DNA of 64,000 bases from an uncultured virus (IMG/VR IMGVR_UViG_3300031566_000024) (Duplodnaviria > Heunggongvirae > Uroviricota > Caudoviricetes), in the IMG/VR virus record IMGVR_UViG_3300031566_000024; one strand, 5' to 3'. The notes under the pieces are model-generated. The model had not been told where the DNA came from. It saw nothing but the letters and a program-made list of their open reading frames with translations, and did no database searches. Every line of letters begins with the position of its first letter. Positions within the stretch are counted from its first letter, which is position 1. A program made the position numbers and the translations under genes. Of the stretch, positions 3,772 to 50,522 are shown piece after piece.

Positions 3772-3803
3772 TAACAAAGGCGGTGTAAAAGCCGCCTTTG
3801 TTA
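3772..3803 (+). terminator. Hairpin, probable terminator or processing stem
   Basis: TAACAAAGGCGGT / GCCGCCTTTGTTA immediately after the stop codon. Confidence 0.6.
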
Positions 3804-3822
3804 TAATATATGGAGTAAAACA

Positions 3823-3990
3823 ATGACAGTAAATAAATGTAGCATCCGTGGCATACATTATTACACATACACAGGAAATAATGTATTTATTGCTGGTGAT
3901 CTGGTTGGTATATGCCACGGATGCTACACAACGAGAAAAGAAATACAACGAAAGTGGCTACGAAGAGCCAACATAAGGAAATATAAATGA
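3823..3990 (+). CDS. Small hypothetical protein (55 aa, not in ORF track)
   Basis: GGAG RBS, MTVNKCSIRG...; ATGA overlap with next gene. Confidence 0.6.
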   Translation: MTVNKCSIRGIHYYTYTGNNVFIAGDLVGICHGCYTTRKEIQRKWLRRANIRKYK

Positions 3991-4259
3991 AAAAGTTAAA
4001 ACCAATTAACGCGGCATTACAGTTTTTAAGCCGGTACGTGCAAAAAGGGGCGCCAAATAACCAATATTTTACAAAAAAGGCTTTATTTACTTACATGGAT
4101 GAACATGGGGTGAAAATCAACAAATTTGATAAATGTCTTATACTGCTTAACTTAGAGACAGCACATTTCATTGAATATGATGAACATTGTGACGCATTTC
4201 ATGTGGATATTGGCAGTAGCTTAGTTTGTGAAATTTTAAAAAAATATATTGTGTATTAG
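3987..4259 (+). CDS. Hypothetical protein, possibly winged-helix
   Basis: 90-aa ORF with AAGGA RBS; fold is a weak guess. Confidence 0.65.
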   Translation: MKKLKPINAALQFLSRYVQKGAPNNQYFTKKALFTYMDEHGVKINKFDKCLILLNLETAHFIEYDEHCDAFHVDIGSSLVCEILKKYIVY

Positions 4260-5808: not shown

Positions 5809-6186
5809 ATGAAAGACTACAAATATATTAAATTTAAAAATAAATTTTATGAATGCATCCCAGGTCAATTGGAATGTGATAAAGATTGTGATTTACAAAA
5901 GATGTGTACGACGAGCGAGGCAATGGATGGTTGTTATGAAGATTGGAAAGACGAAGAGAGTTGCGTATTAAAGCAAATAACTCAAATCCCAATTGGTGCT
6001 GCGGTGTGGTCATATGATGAAAATAAAGCGATTGTTGTAGTAGTTGATATAAAAGATAAAACATGCGGTAGTTGTAGGCCGTGTGTGTATTATGGAAATT
6101 GTCCGTTTCCTGATGACAGACATTGTTATGTCTATAACCGAAAAGGCTATCGAGCCTCGCATTTTGAAGTGTATAAATTAGGATAA
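5809..6186 (+). CDS. Cys-rich protein, paralog of the 4606 N-terminal half
   Basis: MKDYKYIK.KNKFY and P.GA..WSYDEN.A shared with 4606. Confidence 0.85.
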   Translation: MKDYKYIKFKNKFYECIPGQLECDKDCDLQKMCTTSEAMDGCYEDWKDEESCVLKQITQIPIGAAVWSYDENKAIVVVVDIKDKTCGSCRPCVYYGNCPFPDDRHCYVYNRKGYRASHFEVYKLG

Positions 6187-34298: not shown

Positions 34299-34955
34299 TT
34301 ATTTTCTCCTTTGTTTTTCTGTTTTATTCCCATATTTCCAGCCGACAGAACATCCATTATTTATATTCCAATTCACAACATCAAGATTGGCTTGCCCCTG
34401 GGGAGTGCCTGGTTTGATTTCCATATTGTTGTTATTTAAATAAAGGCGTGTAAGTCCCATAAGTCCATTAAGCGGACTTATGGGACTTATTGAGTTACCG
34501 TCTAAATCAAGGTCCGTAAGTCCACTTAATGGGCTGATGTCGCTTATTGAATTGCTGTATAAATAAAGGTATTCACGCTCTGTAAGTCCTCTTAATGGGC
34601 TGAGGTCACTTATTGAGTTGTATGATAAATCAAGATATGTAAGCGCTGTAAGCCCACTTAATGGGCTTATGTCACTTATTTTGTTGTCGTCTAAATCAAG
34701 GGATGTAAGCGCTGTAAGCCCGCTTAATGGGTTTATGTCGCTTATTGAGTTGTTATATAAATTAAGGTCTGTAAGCGTTGTGCAGTATTCTAAACCGGCA
34801 ATATTTGAAATCTTTTTCATACTAGCACTTAATGATTTTATCAATACCAAATCAAAAGCCAAAATCTTTCCAGTTGGCTTGCCAATCTTTAAACGGATGA
34901 CAGATTCTAAATTTGGATCAGGAAAATTCACAACCATATTATTTTCATTTTTCAT
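34299..34955 (-). CDS. Internalin-like LRR protein 7 (6 LRR units)
   Basis: N-cap FPDPNLE..IR, 22-aa LxxLxxLxLxxNxIxDxxPL repeats, C-cap MEIKPGT.QGQ.NLD.VNW. Confidence 0.93.
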   Translation of the reverse strand: MKNENNMVVNFPDPNLESVIRLKIGKPTGKILAFDLVLIKSLSASMKKISNIAGLEYCTTLTDLNLYNNSISDINPLSGLTALTSLDLDDNKISDISPLSGLTALTYLDLSYNSISDLSPLRGLTEREYLYLYSNSISDISPLSGLTDLDLDGNSISPISPLNGLMGLTRLYLNNNNMEIKPGTPQGQANLDVVNWNINNGCSVGWKYGNKTEKQRRK

Positions 34956-35812
34956 TTATTTTCTCCTCTGATTTCCGTTTTATTTCCATATTTCCAGTTA
35001 ACGTCACACTCATTATCCAGATGCCTGTTAACAATATCAAGGTTAGTTTGTCCCTGGGTGGTGCCTGGTTTGATTTCCATGTCGTTGTTCTGTAAATAAA
35101 GGTATTTAAGCGCTGTAAGCCTGTTTAATGGTGTGATGTCACTTATTGAGTTGTTAGCTAAATGAAGGTATGTAAGAGCTGTAAGGCCGCTTAATGGGCT
35201 GATATCAGTTATTGAGTTGTTATCTAAACCAAGGATTTCAAGCGCTGTAAGCCTGCTTAATGGGCTTACGTCAGTTATTGAGTTGTATGATAAACAAAGT
35301 TCTGTAAGCCCTGTAAGCCTGCTTAATGTGCTTATGTCAGTTATTGAGTTACCGTCTAAATAAAGGTCTTCAAGTTCTGCAAGTCCACTTAATGGGCTGA
35401 TATCACTTATTGAGTTGTTATCTAAATGAAGATATGTAAGCGCTGTAAGTCCGCTTAATGGACTGATGTCACTTATTAAGTTATAGTATAAATAAAGTTC
35501 TGTAAGTGCTGTAAGCCTGCTTAATGAGCTTATGTCGGTTATTGAGGTGTTGTGTAAATCAAGGGATGTAAGCTCTGTAAGCTCTCTTATTGGGCTTAGA
35601 TCACTTATTGAGTTGTTATCTAAACCAAGGTATGTAAGAGCTGTACAACATTCTAAACCGGTAATATTTGAAATATCTTTATTGCTAGCACTTAATGATT
35701 TTATTCCGAACAAATCACAAGCCAAAATCTCCCCAATTGGCTTGTTGATCTCTAAACGGATGATAGATTCTAAATTTGGATCAGGAAAATTCACAACCAT
35801 ATTATTTTTCAT
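34952..35812 (-). CDS. Internalin-like LRR protein 6 (9 LRR units)
   Basis: Same caps, 9 units. Confidence 0.93.
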   Translation of the reverse strand: MKNNMVVNFPDPNLESIIRLEINKPIGEILACDLFGIKSLSASNKDISNITGLECCTALTYLGLDNNSISDLSPIRELTELTSLDLHNTSITDISSLSRLTALTELYLYYNLISDISPLSGLTALTYLHLDNNSISDISPLSGLAELEDLYLDGNSITDISTLSRLTGLTELCLSYNSITDVSPLSRLTALEILGLDNNSITDISPLSGLTALTYLHLANNSISDITPLNRLTALKYLYLQNNDMEIKPGTTQGQTNLDIVNRHLDNECDVNWKYGNKTEIRGENK

Positions 35813-36344
35813 TTATTTCTCCTTTGTTTTCAGTTTTATTCCCATATTTCCAGTTAACATAACAACCATTATCTATATGCCAATTAACAACATCAAGATT
35901 AGTCTGCCCTTGGGTAGTGTCTGGTTTGATTTCCATGTCGTTGTAATTTAAATCAAGGTATGTAAGAGCTGTAAGCCCACTTAATGGACTTATGTCACTT
36001 ATTTTGTTGTTATCTAAATAAAGCTTTGTAAGCTTTATAAGTCCACTTAATGGACTTATGTCAGTTATTAAGTTACCGTCTAAATAAAGTTCTGTAAGCT
36101 TTATAAGTCCATTAAGTGGACTTAGGTCACTTATTGAGTTGTCATTTAAACTAAGGTATATAAGCGCTGTGCAACATTCTAAACCGTTAATATTTGAAAT
36201 ATCCTTAAAACCAGCAATTAATGATTTTATCACGATCAAATCAGATTCTAAAATATCCCCAGTTGGTTTATTGATCTTAAAACGGATGATAGCTTCTAAA
36301 TTTGGATCAGGGAAATTCACAGCCATATTATTTTTATTTTTCAT
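35802..36344 (-). CDS. Internalin-like LRR protein 5 (4 LRR units)
   Basis: Same caps, 4 units. Confidence 0.93.
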   Translation of the reverse strand: MKNKNNMAVNFPDPNLEAIIRFKINKPTGDILESDLIVIKSLIAGFKDISNINGLECCTALIYLSLNDNSISDLSPLNGLIKLTELYLDGNLITDISPLSGLIKLTKLYLDNNKISDISPLSGLTALTYLDLNYNDMEIKPDTTQGQTNLDVVNWHIDNGCYVNWKYGNKTENKGEINEK

Positions 36345-37074
36345 TTATTTCTCCTTTGTTTTCCGTTTTATTTCCATATTTCCAGCCGACATAACACCCA
36401 TTATTTAGATGCCAATTAACAACATCAAGATTTATTTGCCCTTGGGGAGTGCCTGGTTTAATTTCCATGTCGTTGTTATCTAAATCAAGGGATGTAAGCG
36501 CTGTAAGCCCACTTAATGGGCTGATATCAGTTATTGAGTTGTTAGATAAACCAAGGTGTTTAAGCGCTGTAAGCCCACTTAATGTGCTGATATCAACTAT
36601 TTCGTTCATGTCTAAATCAAGGAATGTAAGCCCTGTAAGGCTGCTTAATGGTGTTAGGTCAGTTATTTTGTTGCCGGATAAATCAAGGGATGCAAGCCCT
36701 TTAAGGCCGCTTAAAGGGCTTATGTCGCTTATTAAGGTGACAGATAAATCAAGGGATGTAAGCTCTGTAAGCCCTCTTAATGGGCTGATGTCACTTATTG
36801 AGTTATCAGATAAATCAAGGCCTGTAAGAGCTGTAAGCCTGCTTAATGGGCTGATGTCGCTTATTGAGTTGCCGTATAAATAAAGGGATGTAAGCGCTGT
36901 ACAGTACTCTAAACCGGTAATATCAGAAATATCTTTATTGCTAGCACCTAATGATTTTATTTTGACCAACTCAGATGATAGGATATCCCCTGTTGGTTTG
37001 TTGATCTTAAAACGGATGACATCTTCAAGATTTGGATCAGGAAAATTCACACCCTTATTATTTTTATTTTTCAT
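36334..37074 (-). CDS. Internalin-like LRR protein 4 (7 LRR units)
   Basis: Same caps, 7 units. Confidence 0.93.
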   Translation of the reverse strand: MKNKNNKGVNFPDPNLEDVIRFKINKPTGDILSSELVKIKSLGASNKDISDITGLEYCTALTSLYLYGNSISDISPLSRLTALTGLDLSDNSISDISPLRGLTELTSLDLSVTLISDISPLSGLKGLASLDLSGNKITDLTPLSSLTGLTFLDLDMNEIVDISTLSGLTALKHLGLSNNSITDISPLSGLTALTSLDLDNNDMEIKPGTPQGQINLDVVNWHLNNGCYVGWKYGNKTENKGEINEK

Positions 37075-37930
37075 TTATTTCTCCTTTGATTTCTGTTTTA
37101 TTCCCATATTTCCAGTTAACATAACATCCGTCATTCAGATGCCAATTAACAATATCAAGATTAGTTTGTCCCTGGGTGGTGTCTGGTTTGATTTCCATGT
37201 CGTTGTTAGATAAATCAAGGTATGTAAGCTTTGTAAGTTCGCTTAGTGGACTTATGTCACTTATTGAGTTGCCGTCTAAATAAAGTTCTGTAAGCTTTAT
37301 AAGTCCACTTAATGGACTGAGGTCACTGATTGAGTTGACATTTAAACTAAGGTATATAAGCTTTATAAGTCCACTTAATGGACTTATGTCACTTATTGAG
37401 TTGTCGCATAAACCAAGGCGTGTAAGCGCTGTAAGCCCGTTTAATGGGGTGATATCAGTTATTGAGTTGCTATTAAAACTAAGTGATGTAAGCGCTGTAA
37501 GCCTGCTTAATGGTGTTAGGTTAGTTATTTTGTTGCCGGCTAAACCAAGAAATGTAAGCTTTGTAAGCCCTCTTAATGGGCTTATGTCTCTTATTGAGTT
37601 GTTGTCTAAACCAAGGCGTGTAAGTCCTGTAAGTTCACTTAATGGGCTTAGGTCACTGATTACGTTGTATGATAAACTAAGGTATATAAGCGCTGTAAGT
37701 TCGCTTAATGGACTGATGTCACTTATTGAGTTGCTATTTAAACTAAGGTCTGTAAGAGCTGTACAGTACTCTAAACCAGTTATATTTGAAATACCCTTAA
37801 AACCAGCAATTAATGATTTTATCCCGACCAAATCAGATGATAGAATATCCCCTTTTGGCTTGTTGATCTCTAACCGGATGACAGCTTCAAGATTTAGATC
37901 AGGAAAATTCACAACCATATTATTTTTCAT
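37064..37930 (-). CDS. Internalin-like LRR protein 3 (9 LRR units)
   Basis: Same caps, 9 units. Confidence 0.93.
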   Translation of the reverse strand: MKNNMVVNFPDLNLEAVIRLEINKPKGDILSSDLVGIKSLIAGFKGISNITGLEYCTALTDLSLNSNSISDISPLSELTALIYLSLSYNVISDLSPLSELTGLTRLGLDNNSIRDISPLRGLTKLTFLGLAGNKITNLTPLSRLTALTSLSFNSNSITDITPLNGLTALTRLGLCDNSISDISPLSGLIKLIYLSLNVNSISDLSPLSGLIKLTELYLDGNSISDISPLSELTKLTYLDLSNNDMEIKPDTTQGQTNLDIVNWHLNDGCYVNWKYGNKTEIKGEINEK

Positions 37931-38524
37931 TTATTTTCTCCTCTGATTTTCTGTTTTATTTCCATGTTTCCAGTTAACGTCACACCCATTATTCAGATGC
38001 CAATTAATAACATCAAGATTAGTTTGTCCCTGGGTAGTGCCTGGTTTTATTTCCATGTTGTTGTTATATAAATCAAGTTCTGTAAGAGCTGTAAGTTCAC
38101 TTAATGGGCTGATGTCACTTATTTTGTTGTCATATAAACGAAGGAATGTAAGCGTTGTAAGTCCTCTTAATGGACTGATGTCACTGATTGAGTTGCTATC
38201 TAAATAAAGCTTTGTAAGCTTTGTAAGCCCACTTAATGGACTGATGTCACTGATTGAGTTGCTATCTAAATAAAGCTTTGTAAGCTTTGTAAGCCCACTT
38301 AACGGACTGATATTGGTTATTGGGTTATCTTCTAAATCAAGTTCTGTAAGCGCTGTACAGTATTCTAAGCCGGTAATATCAGAAATATCAGACGAACTAG
38401 CATATAATTCAGTTATCACGATCAAATCAGATTCTAAAATATCCCCAGTTGGTTTATTGATCTTAAAACGAATGATATCTTCTAGATTTTTATCAGGGAA
38501 ATTCACAACCATATTATTTTTCAT
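37931..38524 (-). CDS. Internalin-like LRR protein 2 (5 LRR units)
   Basis: Same caps, 5 units, one exactly duplicated. Confidence 0.93.
   Translation of the reverse strand: MKNNMVVNFPDKNLEDIIRFKINKPTGDILESDLIVITELYASSSDISDITGLEYCTALTELDLEDNPITNISPLSGLTKLTKLYLDSNSISDISPLSGLTKLTKLYLDSNSISDISPLRGLTTLTFLRLYDNKISDISPLSELTALTELDLYNNNMEIKPGTTQGQTNLDVINWHLNNGCDVNWKHGNKTENQRRK
38166..38302. repeat. Perfect 66-bp-period tandem duplication of one LRR unit
   Basis: CTTAATGGACTGATGTCACTGATTGAGTTGCTATCTAAATAAAGC... starts at 38166 and again at 38232. Confidence 0.9.
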
Positions 38525-39124
38525 TTATTTTCTCCTTTGTTTTTCCGTTTTATTCCCATGTTTCCAGCCGACATAACATCCGTTATCCAGATGCCAATTA
38601 ACAATATCAAGATTAGTCTGCCCCGGGGCAGTGCCTGGTTTGATTTCCATGTCGTTGTAATTTAAAACAAGGGATGTAAGCTTTGTAAGTCCACTAAGCG
38701 AACTTATGTCGGTTATTTTGTTGTAGTCTAAATAAAGGTATATAAGCCCTGTAAGCCTGCTTAATGTGCTTATGTCACTGATTGAGTTGCCGTCTAAATA
38801 AAGTTCTGTAAGCTTTATAAGCCCTCTTAATGGGTTGATGTCACTTATTGAGTTGTCATTTAAACTAAGGTATATAAGCTCTGTAAGTTCGCTTAATGGG
38901 CTAATATCAGTTATTTTGTTGTTATATAAGTAAAGGTCTGTAAGAGCTGTACAGTACTCTAAACCAGTTATATTTGAAATCTTTTTATTGCTAGCACGTA
39001 ATGATTTTATTCCGACCAAATCAGAAGCTAAAATATCCCCAGTTGGTTTATTGATCTTTAAACGGATGACAGCTTCTAGATTTTTATCAGGGAAATTCAC
39101 AACCATATTATTTTCATTTTTCAT
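38525..39124 (-). CDS. Internalin-like LRR protein 1 (5 LRR units)
   Basis: Start moved to ATG 39124 (MKNENNMVVNFPD, GGGGAG RBS) to match paralogs. Confidence 0.92.
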   Translation of the reverse strand: MKNENNMVVNFPDKNLEAVIRLKINKPTGDILASDLVGIKSLRASNKKISNITGLEYCTALTDLYLYNNKITDISPLSELTELIYLSLNDNSISDINPLRGLIKLTELYLDGNSISDISTLSRLTGLIYLYLDYNKITDISSLSGLTKLTSLVLNYNDMEIKPGTAPGQTNLDIVNWHLDNGCYVGWKHGNKTEKQRRK

Positions 39125-39929
39125 TTGTTTCTCCCCACTCTTCCCTTTTACCATATTGTTTACACACATACCACCACCAATGATTGGTTTTGTCAATGCT
39201 ACACGCATACCGCAATTTATGTTTTTGCATCTTTTTTTCCTCTGTACCGTCTTTTGTGTACATAGTCCTAAACGGGTTACAACAATAACCGGCAATACAG
39301 TTCTTACATGTGTCATCACTTTGTTTTATGACATACTGCTGATTACTAATCAAATCAACACAAGTCTTTTCTTTGTATTCTTTTTTCCATATATACCAAG
39401 CATAGACTTGCATACCTGTTATATATTTTCCGTCATCCCTAATTTCATCGCTTAACATAGGGTAACGGGTGAATGTCTCTATGTTTGTGAGGTAAAACCC
39501 ATTAAGCCCTGTAAATATTTTTTCGGAAAACCTTTGTTGTCCGGAAAAATACGATTGCGGTAGTAAAAAAGCAAATGCTTTTTGCGCAACAAGGCCTGCT
39601 TGCTGGATAAAAGCGCCAGCGTGTATAAACGGCGGATTACCTATTATGTAAGCTGGTTTTTCTGCAACAAAATCAAAAGGTTTTAAGAAATCAAATTCAG
39701 GATACTGAATTGCCTTAACAGTCTTAAAATATTGCTGCAACACCTTTACCATCGCACCCTTACCCGCTGCTGGCTCCAATACTGGCAGCGTAAAATCAAA
39801 AAAATCTTTATACTTATCTATAAATTGTCTTGTCATAGAATAAGGTGTCTGGTAATCATCATCCTTATTGCGTTGACCCTGGTTAACCTTACTATAACAT
39901 TTACCCGTTTTATTTTTTTCTTTTTCCAT
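39114..39929 (-). CDS. DNA amino-methyltransferase (probably N6-adenine) with Cys-rich tail
   Basis: D.Y.TP, LEPAAGKG (SAM binding), IIGNPPF (catalytic), AFLLP, YAWYIW. Confidence 0.88.
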   Translation of the reverse strand: MEKEKNKTGKCYSKVNQGQRNKDDDYQTPYSMTRQFIDKYKDFFDFTLPVLEPAAGKGAMVKVLQQYFKTVKAIQYPEFDFLKPFDFVAEKPAYIIGNPPFIHAGAFIQQAGLVAQKAFAFLLPQSYFSGQQRFSEKIFTGLNGFYLTNIETFTRYPMLSDEIRDDGKYITGMQVYAWYIWKKEYKEKTCVDLISNQQYVIKQSDDTCKNCIAGYCCNPFRTMYTKDGTEEKKMQKHKLRYACSIDKTNHWWWYVCKQYGKREEWGETNEK

Positions 39930-43909: not shown

Positions 43910-45547
43910 TTATAAGTTCACAATATCCGTAAACCCTTCTTTCTTATAATCATCAATCCTCATAAGTGTATGTTTTTCAAGTATGCAATTATGACTATCA
44001 AAAAAATCATATACATTAACACTAGTTTTACCTGTATCAATCCTTAACGCACGCCCTAACCTTTGTATTGTTTGTATATAGCTTTTTCCCCCGCCGGCAA
44101 TTATCAATGTGCGTATACAATTAATAGATATACCCTGATCAAATATACCGGACGCGATTAATACAAAGTCATCTGTATCATTGAAAAGCTCCACATTATA
44201 TTCACGGATAGACACAGCATCGCTACCGGAAATAAATACGCTGTTAGGGATGATGGAAGCAAGTTTTTGCCCGTGTTCGATCCTTTTCACCAATATCATA
44301 GTTTTGTTTGATTTTAGGGTTATTTCTTTGATCTTTTGATTCCTTATGTCGTTGTCAATAATTCCCATTTGTTCGGCATTTCTCCAGCGTTTCTCGTATA
44401 AGTTATCTGGTTTGGTAATTGGCACCATGAATATTCTAGGCTTTGCTATTTTTTCCTGGGCAATGAGATTTACAGCCGGCAATGTATACTCAATATCTCC
44501 AATGTACTCTTGCACTTTAAGTTTTTTTACTCTTTCTTTTTCGACAAATGGCGTTGCAGAAAAGCCAAACCGGTAAATAAAATCATTACTTTGAAGAAAT
44601 GACCGAAATGTGTATGACACTGCTGTGTGACATTCATCAACAATTACAGTATCATATTTTTCTTTCAACTTGTGTACAGAATTGATACTACACATAATTA
44701 TTTTTCTACCTTTCTCATCAACTACCGCACCTGTAATAATGCCTACATTGAGTCCGGCATCCTGTGCGCGTTTGTAGGTTTGTCTTAATACCGATACCGC
44801 TTTGAACAGTAATAATACTTTTCTATTCATTAATTTACAAAGGGCGAGAAATATTTCAGATTTTCCGCCGCTTGTCGGAAGCTTAATTACCACGTTTACT
44901 TTTTTAAGACAGACCTTAACGGCCTTTATTTGGTAATCATATAATGACAAGTAACCGAGACAATCCTTAATTTCACTGTTTGTAAACTTGTACTTAGTTT
45001 TGTTTCTTTTATCGTTAGTTTTGACCTTGTTATTATCTAGTTTTAATCTAGCTACAAGCCCTTTTTTGAACCCTATACCCATTTTTACATAAGGGTTAGT
45101 TTTGTTTTTTTCTAAACTAGCAAACTCTACTATTTGGCGTTTGCTTGCGTCATATGATCCCGATAAGTAACACATACTATAATCATACGTTTGATATACA
45201 ATCAATAATCTATTGAGAAAATCAGTATCTTTTGATTCTACCGTCAAATGGTTGTTATACAATTGAACGGTAATCGGCTTATTGCTAATTAGTTTGTCTG
45301 AGTTAGTTTCTTTGCAGCCTGGTTTGAAAGTTATATCGAAACCTAATTTTCTAATTATCTTCAATGTTTCCGGGCGGTTATGTACTATCCATTGTTTGTT
45401 ATAGTCTGTGTATTTTCTGTATTTACTTGGAATTGTTCTTATTGCAGCAATGATTTTAATAAATTCCGGACGTGGTAGATATTTTATTTTCAGTGTGAAT
45501 TTGTCATCAACGCAAATCGCCTCAAGCACGATTTCTTTACTAATCAA
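43910..45547 (-). CDS. Superfamily 2 helicase (UvsW-like)
   Basis: LYDYQ, PTSGGKS, DECH, SATP, QRLGR.LR. Confidence 0.93.
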   Translation of the reverse strand: MISKEIVLEAICVDDKFTLKIKYLPRPEFIKIIAAIRTIPSKYRKYTDYNKQWIVHNRPETLKIIRKLGFDITFKPGCKETNSDKLISNKPITVQLYNNHLTVESKDTDFLNRLLIVYQTYDYSMCYLSGSYDASKRQIVEFASLEKNKTNPYVKMGIGFKKGLVARLKLDNNKVKTNDKRNKTKYKFTNSEIKDCLGYLSLYDYQIKAVKVCLKKVNVVIKLPTSGGKSEIFLALCKLMNRKVLLLFKAVSVLRQTYKRAQDAGLNVGIITGAVVDEKGRKIIMCSINSVHKLKEKYDTVIVDECHTAVSYTFRSFLQSNDFIYRFGFSATPFVEKERVKKLKVQEYIGDIEYTLPAVNLIAQEKIAKPRIFMVPITKPDNLYEKRWRNAEQMGIIDNDIRNQKIKEITLKSNKTMILVKRIEHGQKLASIIPNSVFISGSDAVSIREYNVELFNDTDDFVLIASGIFDQGISINCIRTLIIAGGGKSYIQTIQRLGRALRIDTGKTSVNVYDFFDSHNCILEKHTLMRIDDYKKEGFTDIVNL

Positions 45548-45573
45548 TTTGAGCTCCTATTTTTTGTTTTTAT

Positions 45574-45603
45574 ATTATTACCATATCCATAGATTTTTGT
45601 CAA
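45574..45603 (-). promoter_or_regulatory. Promoter for the helicase-primase unit
   Basis: TTGACA, 17 bp, TGG-TAATAA on the minus strand. Confidence 0.65.
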
Positions 45604-45831
45604 GTAATTTGTATTCTTGTAATCAATTGATGTACAAAACTGTAACTAAAAGTATTGATATGTTGTGTAATACGAGAGGTCAATTATAACCAAAATTATA
45701 CAAAAGTGTAACGCATAATGAATGAAAATGTTTAAAATATAAGAAATATGTTTATAAACTTTGTAGAATCAAAAGTATAAAACATACAAGACTACTACAT
45801 AAATGTATAGTAAAAATAGTTAAAATATATG

Positions 45832-45882
45832 TTGACAGCTTTAACCTATTATAGTAGACTCTTTTAACCTATTTAGGTTAAA
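45832..45882 (+). promoter_or_regulatory. Promoter with repeated operator-like sites
   Basis: TTGACA 45832-45837, 17 bp, TAGACT; TTTAACCTATT in the spacer and palindrome TTTAACCTA-TT-TAGGTTAAA 45863-45882. Confidence 0.75.
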
Positions 45883-45987
45883 GTAATAAGCATATATGGT
45901 AAACGTCATTAATCTATATAGTAAAAACCATGTACTATTATTTATAGTTTTTATAAGAAAAATCTGAGATTATAGGAGAAAAATAGC

Positions 45988-47391
45988 ATGAACGATATTG
46001 AAACTGTGGCAAGTGCTGACACGTGGTATTTGTATGGCGATGGATTGCTTTTGGAATTAGGCATGGATACCACTTTACTTTTGTCACGAATAATAAATAT
46101 ATACACCCAATTGAATTTTACAACCGATTACTTTGAGTGTAGTGTTGTATCTATAAGAAGAGAGATTGAAATGTCTGCTCATAGACAACGGATTTCAATA
46201 GAAAAACTAACAAAGTTGGGAATAATAAAGACTAAAAATAGCGATTTGCCTGCAACACGAAAAGTAAAACTTTGTAACACAAACATTATCAATACTGTAA
46301 AGGATGTTTATGGTGGTGAAGAGGGGGGTGGTTTTGAGCAAAACAAAAGTGTCGAATTTGAGTTGATTTTTCCAAAAACACAGTTATATATTACATATAT
46401 AACATTATATTCTCTTTATTATTTATTAATAATAAATAATAGAGTTATCAAAAATGATAACTCCTATTTGTCCACTTTAAATTTTTTTTCAAATAGGAAA
46501 ATACTTTCTTTTGAAGAGAGAGAAAAAAAAACAAAAGAAAAAAACAATGAACTAAAAAACAAAATTTTATCCGATGAAAATTTCTTGGAAATTATAAGAA
46601 CATTTTCAGATTTTCCGGCCCCGGCAGTTACACACAATGTGAACAAAATAACGAACACACTTGCAGAAGCGTACAGTCTATACCAGCACTTGCTTAACGG
46701 TACATTTTTCGATAATTGTAAACAAATCACAGAGCCGTGGATCGTTGCCAATAAAGGCGATTGGAGTAAATTAAAGGAAAAAAAATGGAAACACAAGAAA
46801 ATTATGAAAGTACTGAAAGAGGCCGGAAAACCATATTTACCAGACTATTACCCATTTTCAAAAGATGACAAAAAAAAGATTTTGCCGAAGAGCTTGCCAC
46901 AATTATTTTATAATCCCTTCGTAAAAAAATGCCCGTCTTCTTTTATTCGTGCCTATTTACAGCCGCCGAAACTATCTCCGGTACAAGAAATCACAGACAA
47001 GTACCCGGGAATTACTACTGAAATTTCGCAGATGTGCGACGTAACACCTCGGATAATTATACGTGCTATCACATATTTAGAGCCCTTCTACAATGAAATT
47101 TGTAACAAGTCGATTATTTTTGAAGATGGTAAAAAATACACCCGGTTATCCCTTGACATGGAGTTTTCGCGCCATTTGGGAACGTTTGTAAAGTTTTTAG
47201 GCGTGTATGTCGAGTGGTTAGGGTCTTTATCGGAAAAATGGCGCAACCAGCAATCAGTAAGGCTCGCGGGTGTTACGCGTGGTTGGTTCGACGAGTACTT
47301 GAAAAAAAATTATGATATTATTTTAGAGCCTAATGACAGCTATTTACAACGGTTGGCGCGAGATTTGAAAAGAATGAAATCCGGTTATTGA
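45988..47391 (+). CDS. Putative replication initiator / DNA-binding protein
   Basis: Winged-helix-like N-terminus (F.CS...I..E..MS.H.QR..I.KL...G.I...LPA), AT-rich low-complexity linker, replication context. Confidence 0.65.
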   Translation: MNDIETVASADTWYLYGDGLLLELGMDTTLLLSRIINIYTQLNFTTDYFECSVVSIRREIEMSAHRQRISIEKLTKLGIIKTKNSDLPATRKVKLCNTNIINTVKDVYGGEEGGGFEQNKSVEFELIFPKTQLYITYITLYSLYYLLIINNRVIKNDNSYLSTLNFFSNRKILSFEEREKKTKEKNNELKNKILSDENFLEIIRTFSDFPAPAVTHNVNKITNTLAEAYSLYQHLLNGTFFDNCKQITEPWIVANKGDWSKLKEKKWKHKKIMKVLKEAGKPYLPDYYPFSKDDKKKILPKSLPQLFYNPFVKKCPSSFIRAYLQPPKLSPVQEITDKYPGITTEISQMCDVTPRIIIRAITYLEPFYNEICNKSIIFEDGKKYTRLSLDMEFSRHLGTFVKFLGVYVEWLGSLSEKWRNQQSVRLAGVTRGWFDEYLKKNYDIILEPNDSYLQRLARDLKRMKSGY

Positions 47392-47411
47392 AAAAAAATT
47401 AAAAAAATATC

Positions 47412-47440
47412 TTGACATGTTAAAAAAAATAGGTTATTAT
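47412..47440 (+). promoter_or_regulatory. Promoter of the RNA island
   Basis: TTGACA, 17 bp, TATTAT. Confidence 0.85.
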
Positions 47441-47446
47441 GGCGAA

Positions 47447-47938
47447 CAATTAACGATGACAAGGGAAACCAGGGAGACGGCAAGATGAAAAACTTAGTGA
47501 AAATTATTTTTATAACGATCGTGAATAATCTCACTAAGAAAAATAATTTTGTAATAAAATCCTTTACGACACGTGTGCTTACAGTTTATGATGGTTTATG
47601 GCCTGTAAAAAACACTACTTCGGAAGCAGGAACGGTGACAAGGCTGATAACCGTAAACCGTGATAGCAAAAGGATTGCTAATACCATTCGTATCAATGGT
47701 CTACCTGGTTATGGTTAATTGAGGTTTAGCATGGTCTGTGATTTTGGATCAGTTCGGTGGGTGTCATACACTTTCCGGAAGGCAAAATCTAGAATCGGAT
47801 TGACTTCTGTTGTGTTTGTGCAACGTGCAACGTCGCATGATAAACATGATGGGAAAAATCAGGATCTTGTTGAAGGGGTTCGGGGTGGTGCTGCCAGGTC
47901 TCACCCCGAAAAACCTTTAACGAATGATTATTTTTTTT
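47447..47938 (+). ncRNA. Candidate large structured ncRNA (~490 nt)
   Basis: Long-range and nested helices throughout; begins at the expected +1; ends in a long hairpin plus T8. Confidence 0.75.
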
Positions 47939-47951
47939 GTAGGGTGGTCAT

Positions 47952-48137
47952 GTGTCTAATATTTGGAATGATGGGATTTGTAATGCGTGTGGTGCAGTAG
48001 TTGAAGAAATGTCAAGTGCAAGACTTGGTCAAGGTTTTGATTATCAAAATAGGTGTACCAATTGCAAATGTGTTAACCATTGCTGGCATCATTGCGGAGA
48101 TATGGAAGAACTTGATTATTACAAGCATAATCAATAA
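47952..48137 (+). CDS. Small Cys/His-rich protein
   Basis: GGGTGG RBS, GTG start; CNACG, CTNCKC, HCWHHC. Confidence 0.6.
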   Translation: MSNIWNDGICNACGAVVEEMSSARLGQGFDYQNRCTNCKCVNHCWHHCGDMEELDYYKHNQ

Positions 48138-48232
48138 GTGTATTGACAGAGTAGTATGGTACTAACGCTACCGTTCAGGCCTTACAAGCTTGGTAAATCG
48201 GATGGTTTGTACTGTACTCTGTGAATGCACTT
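48136..48232 (+). ncRNA. 97-nt rod-like RNA with an apical anticodon-like loop
   Basis: AAGTGTATT/AATGCACTT, ACAGAGTA/TACTCTGT, TGGTAC/GTACTG stems; apex CAGGC-CTTACAA-GCTTG. Confidence 0.55.
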
Positions 48233-48251
48233 GTATTTAAAGCCTGTTAAA

Positions 48252-48325
48252 CGGGGTATATGTATGATTTGGTGTAATAAACAGGTCGTACCTGTTTATC
48301 GGAGGTTCAAGTCCTCCCGCCCCGA
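48252..48325 (+). tRNA. Atypical tRNA-like gene, anticodon CGT (Thr) on a Pro-like acceptor stem
   Basis: CGGGGTA/CGCCCCG acceptor, GGAGG-TTCAAGT-CCTCC T-arm, AACAG-GTCGTAC-CTGTT anticodon arm, poorly paired D-arm. Confidence 0.6.
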
Positions 48326-48378
48326 ATACATACAGTCTGCCAGGTAGGCAGACTGTATAATCTAAAGTTTTTTTCAAA

Positions 48379-48471
48379 CGGGCTGTGGTCTAATTGGGAG
48401 CGGCTATCTGATCCATAGCAGTAAGACAAGGGCAAACGCCTTTATTGTGAGTTCGAATCTTACCGGTCCGA
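48379..48471 (+). tRNA. Atypical tRNA-like gene, anticodon GAT (Ile) with C37 and long variable arm
   Basis: CGGGCTG/CGGTCCG acceptor, GCTAT-CTGATCC-ATAGC anticodon arm, 27-nt variable arm, GTGAG-TTCGAAT-CTTAC T-arm. Confidence 0.65.
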
Positions 48472-48540
48472 TTGAAAAAACAGTATTGCTAATTTTTAAT
48501 TTCATTAATACTTATGGGGTGTCACTCTCATAAGTATTAT

Positions 48541-48611
48541 GGCCTAATAATCTAATGGTAGGATATTAGATTTTCGATCTAAGTACCGGGGTTCGACTCC
48601 CTGTTAGGCTA
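48541..48611 (+). tRNA. tRNA-Glu (TTC)
   Basis: GGCCTAA/TTAGGCT acceptor, ATCT/GGAT D-stem, TTAGA-TTTTCGA-TCTAA anticodon arm, CGGGG-TTCGACT-CCCTG T-arm; no encoded CCA. Confidence 0.9.
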
Positions 48612-48613
48612 AT

Positions 48614-48849
48614 GAACAAGCACGAACTGAGCAATAGGAATTATGATAAACGACACACTTTAAGTTTTTAATTCCTCCCTTTTGAGCTATACGAGAACAA
48701 GGTAGACACAAAAGGGCAGCGTGTTACGTGGGTGGCGAAGGAAAGTCGATGACTAAACCCGTTTACCGCTAGACGAACAAGCGGAAATCTAATTAGTACA
48801 AAGCAGGATTATACCCGCGCCTGTTGAAATAATGGCGGGTACATTTTTT
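48614..48849 (+). ncRNA. Candidate multi-stem ncRNA with terminator
   Basis: AGGAATTA/TAATTCCT, CCCTTTTG/CAAAAGGG, CCGCT/AGCGG stems; TACCCGC/GCGGGTA plus T run. Confidence 0.6.
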
Positions 48850-48890
48850 AAAAATTATATTTATATATGGCTACTCCTTTTAATTTATTT

Positions 48891-49032
48891 TACCGGTTAC
48901 ATATATTGATAATATGTAACCGGGTTATTTTACACGCAATCTCTTTTTGAGATCATTATATATATTCCATTTTAGTCAGTTCTTTTTTGCCGGTTGTTAT
49001 TTATCCTTTTTGTAATAACCGGTTATTTTTTT
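48891..49032 (+). terminator. Two further terminator-like hairpins
   Basis: CCGGTTACATAT/ATATGTAACCGG and CCGGTTGTTAT/GTAATAACCGG, each followed by a T-rich tail. Confidence 0.7.
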
Positions 49033-49049
49033 CTTAAAGTGAGACGTTA

Positions 49050-50522
49050 ATGAATTTTACGATTGATAGAGTTGACAATAAAAAATTAAAAATGCTTGTT
49101 ATATCAATGATAGTGTCAACAAAAGTGTGCAGTGAAATTATACCTGTACTGAGAGTTAATCTTGATTTATTTTACGAGGTGTTCGAAAGTTTCTATAAGC
49201 CGGTTGTAACCTGGATCATTGAATTTTACGAACTTACAGAGAAAGCACCAGAAAAACATATACAAAATATATTTGACGACAAATCAGAAAAACTTGAAGG
49301 TACTGAGAAAAGTTTAATTCAGACTTTTCTGAAAACTCTTAATGATGAATATGTGAAATATGAAAAATACAATGAAGATTACGCAATTGATCAGGCAAAA
49401 ATATACTTGCGTGAAGCGAATCTGGCATTACTCACAAAAAAAATAAGTGCTGCAACAAAAGCAGGGAAACTAGATGATGCTGAAAATTATATTGCAACAT
49501 ATAACCAGATCGAAGCCAAAACACAGATATGCCAAGAGACGTCTATTGTGTATGGTAAAGAATTTTGGGATGATGATCCGGATAACAATCCCGATTCACT
49601 TTTTATAATGCCTGGTGCACTGGGCGACATTGCAGGCCCATTTGCACGCGGTGATTTTGTAGCGTTTAACGGCCCCAAAAAGCGCGGGAAATCATTCTGG
49701 CTCAAGCAAATAGCAATATGGGCGATGGAAAGTAATCTCAATGTAATCTATTTCAATATGGAAATGGCACATAAGAAATGCATACGCAGATTTAGACAAT
49801 ATTTCAGTGCCGAAACTCTACGATTGAAAGATAAAAAAACTGGATATGATGAAATCAGAATTCCGAAATTCATTGAAGCGGGTGACGAGTCTGGACAATG
49901 GGAAATGTCATACACAATGAAAAAGAAAAAGGGTGTAACAAAAGAGAAATCTAAAAATAAACAAAAACAATTACAAATCAAATACAGGGGCGATATCCGA
50001 TTCATTACGTATGCAGCAAACTCATTAACGCTGTCTATTGCTGATAAGAAAATTGACGAGTATTTCAACAATGGCTTTGTTGCAGACGTGATAATATTTG
50101 ACTCAATGGATTTGTTGAAATCTGGAAAACGGGACCAGGTACGGCAGGAAATCAATGAAAAATGGGGTGTAGGTCGAGAACTCGCACAAAAAAAACACGC
50201 GTTAATTGTTACAGTATCGCATACAAACAAGGAAACTAATAAAAGAGCTATTACAGGTTCGGACTTTCAAGAGGATGATAGAAAAGGCAATTGGTTAACT
50301 GCTGGATTTGGGCTTAACCAAACAGAGGATGAAAAAGAGACCGGTATTATGCGCGTGAATTGTTTAGTGAGTCGTGACAATTTTTTCACATCAAAAAATT
50401 TTGTATATGTTTTGGAGTGTCGAGATATTGGGAAAATTTATCTGGATTCAAGACATCAATGGGAAATAAAAAATAATGAGAGGAGTAGCAATGAAAATAA
50501 GCAAAAGCCAGCTTATCAGTAA
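49050..50522 (+). CDS. Replicative helicase (DnaB-like)
   Basis: GPKKRGKS Walker A, FNMEM, IIFDSMD, TVSH, EDDRK, GLNQT..EK..G.MR. Confidence 0.9.
   Translation: MNFTIDRVDNKKLKMLVISMIVSTKVCSEIIPVLRVNLDLFYEVFESFYKPVVTWIIEFYELTEKAPEKHIQNIFDDKSEKLEGTEKSLIQTFLKTLNDEYVKYEKYNEDYAIDQAKIYLREANLALLTKKISAATKAGKLDDAENYIATYNQIEAKTQICQETSIVYGKEFWDDDPDNNPDSLFIMPGALGDIAGPFARGDFVAFNGPKKRGKSFWLKQIAIWAMESNLNVIYFNMEMAHKKCIRRFRQYFSAETLRLKDKKTGYDEIRIPKFIEAGDESGQWEMSYTMKKKKGVTKEKSKNKQKQLQIKYRGDIRFITYAANSLTLSIADKKIDEYFNNGFVADVIIFDSMDLLKSGKRDQVRQEINEKWGVGRELAQKKHALIVTVSHTNKETNKRAITGSDFQEDDRKGNWLTAGFGLNQTEDEKETGIMRVNCLVSRDNFFTSKNFVYVLECRDIGKIYLDSRHQWEIKNNERSSNENKQKPAYQ

Follow-up and report, generated by a model that had tools for sequence, protein, structure and literature searches.

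Does a long and intricately folded transcription unit beside the tRNA genes of a phage represent a new kind of structured RNA, or is it the message of a small gene? This question is raised by positions 47412–47938 (+ strand) of a 64,000-nt stretch of DNA (the window, analyzed here over its full length) from an uncultured tailed virus of the Caudoviricetes (IMG/VR record IMGVR_UViG_3300031566_000024; 64,757 bases, rated complete). GOLLD and ROOL, two classes of large RNA, lie near tRNA genes in phage or prophage DNA, and an initial annotation of the unit had proposed that all ~490 nt form one ornate non-coding RNA (ncRNA), perhaps of a new class, with its own promoter and terminator. That proposal fails for the 5' 275 nt, which carry the coding signals of a 77-codon open reading frame (ORF77); only the 3' ~220 nt look non-coding. 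Our data suggest that the unit is probably the mRNA of an orphan small protein, whose fold would protect the ends of the message and damp its translation.

The idea of a self-contained transcription unit held up. A sigma-70-type promoter, TTGACA-17-TATTAT, occupies 47412–47440 (+ strand), with an A-rich tract just 5' of it; with 11 of 12 matches it ranks first among 24 promoter-like sites in 45500–49200, and the segment 47392–47446 has no changes (0 of 55 positions) in the second haplotype of this locus described below. Promoter spacing predicts a transcription start at about 47445–47448. At the other end, hairpin C (47863–47929, + strand; minimum free energy (MFE) −33.8 kcal/mol) is followed by eight U residues at 47931–47938. 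Folded alone, this hairpin reaches a z-score of −4.91 (0 of 200 shuffles as good) with an MFE structure equal to the centroid, and hairpin and U tract together make a convincing intrinsic terminator. A simple consensus terminator scan did not list the 47863–47938 hairpin, whose stem and loop we assume to lie outside the limits of that scan.

Within this predicted transcript, a 38-nt leader precedes ORF77 (47485–47718, + strand; ATG start, 77 codons). We read the 5' half of the unit as coding because it has a strong Shine-Dalgarno (SD) site, a frame length that is rare in shuffled sequence and a clear three-base periodicity. The SD sequence GGGAGA (47472–47477, + strand) stands 7 nt before the ATG and pairs with a generic anti-SD at −8.2 kcal/mol, an energy that only 2.6% of 1289 + strand ATGs match and that equals or beats the SD energy of 62% of 50 phage genes, strong SD sites being found throughout this phage. 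When the 492 nt were shuffled 3000 times with dinucleotides preserved, 99 of the shuffled sequences contained an ATG-initiated frame of at least 77 codons, and 16 contained one that also had an SD-like site. The periodicity of ORF77 (chi2 24.8) is reached by none of 664 chance stop-free frames (mean 7.2) and appears in all three thirds of the frame, and its purine fraction at codon position 1 (0.75) is reached by 0.3% of chance frames. These values fall in the upper range of 77-codon chunks taken from real genes (n = 121; mean chi2 19.0, mean purine fraction 0.68). The codon score (0.237 bits) lies above those of all 84 spurious open frames inside genes, but we do not rely on codon usage because this score is largely explained by composition. 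The ORF77 protein is stored letter for letter in the protein library and in the ESM Atlas, so the source gene callers had also predicted it. There is, then, strong statistical evidence that ORF77 is a gene, probably encoding an orphan basic protein.

The coding half is also part of an unusually stable fold. The initial annotation had called for a folding z-score against dinucleotide shuffles, and by this measure folding is strong on the + strand: the 492 nt from 47447 to 47938 have an MFE of −152 kcal/mol versus −116.7 ± 6.3 for the shuffles (z −5.59, 0 of 100 as good), while the − strand reaches a z of only −2.67. Folded separately, the 5' 275 nt and the 3' 217 nt reach z −5.55 and −5.13, respectively, and the MFE pairs of the unit have a mean pair probability of 0.82. 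G-U pairs, which had been taken as a sign of RNA-level pairing, make up 28 of the 164 predicted pairs; a stronger argument for such pairing comes from the difference in z-score between the strands. As coding controls, we used 34 windows of 275 nt (mean z −0.71, sd 1.26, minimum −4.6) and three gene windows of 492 nt (z −3.21, −0.79 and −0.52); the + strand values of the unit lie below all of them. Relative to permuted synonymous codons, the native 5' domain has a z of −2.4 (though the best of 150 permutations, at −76.2 kcal/mol, lay below the native −74.6 kcal/mol), and relative to codons redrawn from phage usage it is again the more stable (z −3.3). Taken with the strand asymmetry, this excess over synonymous recodings points to selection for RNA structure in the sense strand.

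Two results count against the uniqueness of this fold. A composition-regression scan in 300-nt windows did not flag the unit (z −0.2 to −1.1), though its windows cut long-range helices; the tRNA region was flagged by the same scan. A second small-ORF region of the phage, at 3772–4200, reaches z −5.62, and units that combine a small ORF with a strong fold may be a regular feature of this phage. As a separate observation, the 3772–4200 region lies within an 834-nt stretch without any ORF of at least 100 codons, begins with a terminator-like hairpin and contains a 55-codon ORF (3823–3990) that holds an inverted repeat of ~18 bp.

The architecture of the 5' half follows the limits of ORF77. Positions 47447–47721 (+ strand) fold into a closed multi-helix domain (MFE −74.6 kcal/mol, 0 of 200 shuffles as good, centroid close to the MFE structure) in which the first ~40 nt, containing the leader, SD and AUG, are paired with the final ~33 nt of ORF77, and the borders of the domain coincide with those of the frame. 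The outermost helix, P1 (CAATTAAC/GTTAATTG; 47447–47454 with 47714–47721, + strand; pair probability 0.99), joins the predicted first bases of the transcript to the stop-codon region. The SD is half buried (mean unpaired probability ~0.5), and opening of the start region would cost 6.3 kcal/mol, which is above the value for 44 of 50 genes; six of the 50 are as high or higher, so this cost is within the range of genes. Inside ORF77, a hairpin at 47493–47538 (+ strand; 8 + 7 bp, 13-nt loop, pair probability 0.99) is stable even in isolation (z −3.29, equalled by 1 of 200 shuffles). Its loop displays an 8-nt self-complementary sequence, ACGAUCGU (47515–47522); a role for this palindrome in loop-loop pairing is only an idea, and the palindrome was noticed after the fact.

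The helices that had been picked out by eye fared unevenly. All 12 proved complementary within 1 nt of where they had been drawn, and six have pair probabilities of at least 0.85, including CTTAGTGA/TCACTAAG (mean 0.99), TTACAG/CTGTAA (0.85), the GU-rich 13-bp stem (0.86) and the two parts of the terminator stem (0.97 and 0.96). ACGGT/ACCGT (0.53) and GATTTTG/CAAAATC (0.33) are less certain, and four others (AACCAGG/CCTGGTT, AGAC/GTCT, AATCCTTT/AAAGGATT and ACCATT/AATGGT) have probabilities of ~0. The last four are competing alternatives that lie 1.5–5 kcal/mol above the optimum, and they cannot coexist because two of them overlap at 47699–47700.

The final ~220 nt of the unit is non-coding and consists of three hairpins, of which the last is the terminator. 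Hairpin A (47739–47797, + strand) is modest when folded alone (z −1.88, 13 of 200 shuffles as good; −0.30 on the − strand). Hairpin B (47805–47854, + strand), a GU-rich stem of 13–15 bp with G-U in 5 of 13 stem pairs, is stronger (z −2.82, 0 of 200 shuffles as good; − strand −1.17), and all three hairpins are much weaker on the − strand. A 93-codon frame does span 47719–48000, but we read the tail as non-coding because the periodicity of this frame equals the chance mean (chi2 7.2), its codon score is close to zero (0.001) and it is broken in the second haplotype, where an 18-nt insertion shortens it to 72 codons; its start context is also poor.

That haplotype is the sole other copy of the unit that was found, on a near-identical contig (L002) with ~98% identity. 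Near-identical DNA occurs in only six soil-metagenome DNA runs (no RNA run was listed), and the four of these six that were examined contain the same two haplotypes only. Of the eight differences that fall within the unit, three alter one side of a predicted pair and leave it intact, three disrupt a pair and two lie at unpaired positions; there are no compensatory changes, and the overall fold energy stays the same. ORF77 remains intact, with one silent and one replacement change. Divergence amounts to 2 of 275 positions in the 5' domain, 6 of 217 in the tail, 10 of 199 in the next small gene and 9 of 114 in the following hairpin, numbers that are small and come from a mosaic locus. The 18-nt insertion (~5935–5960 of the second contig, corresponding to window 47933–47945) splits the terminator U tract, and termination in this haplotype may be leaky. 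The same insertion creates an upstream ATG with GAGGGGG for the Cys-rich ORF that follows the unit, extending it from 61 to 66 codons, and in this version of the Cys-rich ORF one cysteine is replaced by arginine.

More distant relatives of the unit did not emerge. A blastn search in distant mode with 47400–47945 against 50,697 phage records gave no match, a 31-mer index showed no near-identical copies of the stretch elsewhere, and no paralogue of the unit is present within the window. When viral contigs were searched for related loci with the flanking 467-residue protein, DnaB and the phage polymerase (PolA), each search led only to the same near-identical contig. DnaB relatives with 36–42% identity were found on three viral and metagenome contigs (L006, L010 and L011), with a further short fragment (L012) at 33%; bacterial genome contigs contained no related DnaB. 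On the three longer contigs, the gene order is an initiator-like gene, an ORF of 121–144 aa and DnaB (L006 has an extra 200-aa ORF before DnaB), and none of the four contigs carries tRNA genes. At the DNA level, the full record behind L006, the only one of the four compared in this way, shared just chance matches of 14–19 nt. Since the nearest phages carry another ORF at this position and have neither the surrounding gene island nor the tRNAs, the island is a lineage-specific replacement in a variable slot.

Known RNA classes likewise offer no match. Rfam 15 cmscan at gathering thresholds found only two tRNAs in the whole window, and searches at E up to 10 on 47300–48700 (and permissively on 48560–49100) found nothing credible that overlaps the unit. 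There was no Rfam match to RNase P, group I or II introns, riboswitches or T-boxes, and ARAGORN found no tmRNA. The inability of the initial annotation to assign the unit by eye to GOLLD, ROOL, tmRNA, RNase P or an intron was therefore borne out by the cmscan comparison that it had suggested and by ARAGORN, as was its placement of the unit next to tRNA genes (Rfam, ARAGORN), since tRNA and tRNA-like genes lie 300–700 nt downstream.

How do these features fit together? From the motifs and the fold and coding statistics, we infer that the sigma-70-type promoter starts a ~490-nt transcript of this uncultured soil phage, and that the SD in its 38-nt leader would direct translation of ORF77 into a basic orphan protein of 77 residues. 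The leader is predicted to pair with the end of ORF77, closing the gene into a 275-nt domain from the predicted first base onward. The paired 5' end and the 3' hairpins could then shield the message from nucleases, while the half-buried SD and AUG may damp or gate the initiation of translation. Leaky termination might feed expression of the downstream Cys-rich small gene and of the tRNA and tRNA-like genes. A fold that exceeds the needs of the protein, combined with pairing between leader and ORF end, may thus stabilize or gate an early phage message.

Several observations weigh against a reading of the unit as an orphan small-protein mRNA. The predicted product (77 residues, basic, mostly polar, with a longest hydrophobic run of only ~10 residues) has no homologue besides itself among 1.84 billion representatives and no matches in Pfam, PHROGs, NCBIfam, PDB sequences or a tblastn search against phages. 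Protein models give no confident fold (ESM Atlas pLDDT 0.39 and pTM 0.16; AlphaFold2 single-sequence pLDDT 50); single-sequence structure predictions of orphan proteins are often poor. The codon score of ORF77 is matched by 10% of 473 chance frames from the same region when shuffled, and the two differences in ORF77 between haplotypes say nothing either way. Finally, ordinary coding sequence rarely folds so strongly, since none of the 34 controls reaches −5.5 and one reaches −4.6, and some RNA-level role beyond message stability is possible.

Such a role is central to the main rival explanation, in which ORF77 is translated but its folded message has a second role as an RNA, serving as scaffold, decoy or regulator and perhaps pairing with itself through the palindromic loop. 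We consider this dual function unlikely but worth weighing: both halves of the unit fold at z of about −5 on the + strand only, the structure goes beyond the demands of the protein (z −2.4 against permuted and −3.3 against redrawn codons), ACGAUCGU is exposed in the 13-nt loop of a hairpin, the island around the unit also contains tRNA and tRNA-like genes and the 5' domain is less diverged between haplotypes (2/275) than its neighbors. Yet there are no compensatory changes among the eight haplotype differences, no paralogue in the genome and no Rfam match; the self-complementary palindrome was spotted post hoc; and the equally strong folding of 3772–4200 means that such folds may be common among the small genes of this phage. 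A bolder version holds that the 275-nt domain pairs via ACGAUCGU with its own copies or with a partner, forming an RNA-level assembly or decoy at the head of an island of tRNA mimics, and also encodes a small basic protein that might bind it. This is distinctly unlikely in our view; if true, it would define a new dual-function class of phage RNA. The opposite extreme, a purely non-coding ornate RNA of ~490 nt and of a new class in which ORF77 is a chance frame, accounts well for the strong strand-specific folding, the helix that begins at the predicted first base, an SD and AUG that lie inside the fold, the lack of a protein homologue or confident fold for ORF77 and the tRNA-adjacent setting familiar from GOLLD and ROOL. 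It requires several improbable coincidences, however, and we judge it very unlikely: a frame of this length with an SD-like site appears in only 16 of 3000 shuffles, the SD matches or exceeds those of most real genes, the limits of the domain match those of ORF77, and the periodicity runs along the whole of ORF77 at a level that no chance frame attains (0 of 664), for which we see no known reason in a folded ncRNA.

Control of neighboring genes offers a further alternative to an orphan mRNA with a protective fold. The 3' hairpins and terminator could constitute an attenuator of read-through into the Cys-rich gene and the tRNA and tRNA-like genes, set by translation of ORF77 or by another signal. 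The Cys-rich ORF, with its SD-like site and chi2 of 22.7, begins within 14 nt of the terminator, the promoter scan of 45500–49200 revealed no strong site from 47938 to the tRNAs and the U tract is interrupted in the second haplotype, all of which are consistent with this idea; the lack of a riboswitch or T-box match and a terminator hairpin that is very stable and well defined (MFE equal to centroid) speak against it. We give such a regulated leader little probability as an explanation of the unit, though it is compatible with the small-protein mRNA and could coexist with it without replacing it. A module resembling type I toxin-antitoxin systems, in which an inert, end-to-end paired toxin mRNA is controlled by an antisense RNA, would fit the pairing of the leader with the 3' part of the ORF, which half buries SD and AUG and resembles the hok-type fold-back. 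This last scheme is highly improbable, given that the product is a basic, mostly polar protein of 77 residues and no short membrane peptide, that antisense promoters over the unit are none better than 9/12 and that the − strand folds weakly. In a search for antisense targets of the unit within the phage, the best match (14 nt, E 0.31) was at chance level. An origin or primer RNA was also considered as the main explanation and rejected, since the unit carries coding signals and the origin-like repeats are located elsewhere (45548–45987 and within the 467-aa gene).

Comparison with known systems supports a cautious placement of the unit. The closest in kind are small orphan phage genes and hairpin-flanked early mRNAs; in T7, for example, early mRNAs are flanked by long stabilizing or RNase III-type hairpins. 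The unit shares with them its own sigma-70-type promoter, a strong SD, a short ORF without homologues, long imperfect hairpins and a terminator, but it differs in that its coding part folds at z −5.55 and its whole leader pairs with the end of the ORF. Pairing of a ribosome-binding region with a distant segment of the same RNA is also found in RNA phages and hok-type mRNAs, where long-range pairings gate translation; here, however, the burial is partial (6.3 kcal/mol, within the range of phage genes) and there is no evident antisense partner. RNAIII of Staphylococcus aureus and SgrS are dual-function RNAs, structured, a few hundred nucleotides long and equipped with a short ORF, in which long-range helices close domains. 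The unit resembles them as a highly structured transcript of similar length with a short ORF, but it has no homology to them, and ORF77 fills more than half of the RNA. The large ornate RNAs GOLLD and ROOL, carried by phages and prophages and the subject of a cryo-EM study (10.1101/2024.12.08.627333), are similar to the unit in being phage-borne, several hundred nucleotides long, rich in helices and situated beside tRNA genes. In contrast to them, the unit has no covariance-model match, carries coding signals over more than half of its length and lacks relatives that show a conserved architecture. A folded unit that runs from promoter to terminator beside phage tRNAs can mimic a GOLLD/ROOL-type RNA and yet most likely be a small gene over more than half of its length, and scans for large phage ncRNAs should first apply coding tests (ribosome-binding site, frame length and three-base periodicity).

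The setting of the unit is a tailed phage whose window proteins (Pfam) comprise structural genes of the E217/Pam3 type and a replication module with a superfamily-2 helicase, a primase, a DnaB-like helicase, a clamp-like protein, a family A polymerase, a clamp-loader-like ATPase and a RecA-like protein; the polymerase is at most ~23% identical to that of any cultured phage. The unit sits between the gene for the 467-residue orphan protein (45988–47391) and the DnaB gene (49050–50522). The 467-aa protein has one relative besides itself in 5.8 billion proteins, and related phages have distant syntenic counterparts (~25% identity) just upstream of DnaB. The two haplotypes of this protein (L002 3986–5392 and window 45988–47391) are nearly identical over the C-terminal ~330 residues and unrelated over the first ~120–130, a pattern that indicates a swap of the N-terminal domain by recombination.

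Between this initiator-like gene and DnaB lies a 1.66-kb orphan island (47392–49049) that contains, in order, the unit, the Cys-rich ORF, a long hairpin, a tRNA-like sequence, a terminator-like hairpin, a second tRNA-like sequence, tRNA-Glu, ~280 nt of further sequence and two terminator-like hairpins. The Cys-rich 61-codon ORF (47952–48137) has an SD-like site and a periodicity chi2 of 22.7, and its sole relative found is 97% identical. The long hairpin 3' of it spans 48134–48240, and the region downstream of the unit (47939–48378) folds at z −4.43. tRNA-like 1 (48252–48325) scores 27.3 bits with the Rfam tRNA model against a threshold of 29, and a 7-bp stem with a ~3-nt loop replaces its anticodon arm. 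The terminator-like hairpin at 48330–48376 separates it from tRNA-like 2 (48379–48471; 93 nt), which ARAGORN reports as tRNA-??? with a 4-base anticodon; its D region is enlarged by a 26-nt insertion, and a 6-bp stem capped by a 4-nt loop occupies the position of the anticodon arm. As aligned, both look-alikes are without a normal 7-nt anticodon loop. tRNA-Glu(UUC) (48541–48611) is apparently normal, and the ~280 nt that follow it fold at z −2.29. It is of modest interest that an orphan RNA island with two tRNA look-alikes replaces the small gene of the nearest related phages.

A few other features of the genome merit mention. Inside the 467-aa initiator-like gene, 46400–46560 is AT-rich with palindromes and hairpins, and the 492-nt window 46400–46891 folds at z −3.21; upstream, the divergent intergenic region 45548–45987 contains direct repeats, with TTTAACCTATT occurring twice. 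Both regions are candidate replication origins on the basis of these sequence features, and in lambda the origin lies within the initiator gene. On the − strand, 34299–39319 carries a tandem array of at least seven paralogues that encode leucine-rich-repeat proteins (180–288 aa) and have near-identical ribosome-binding contexts.

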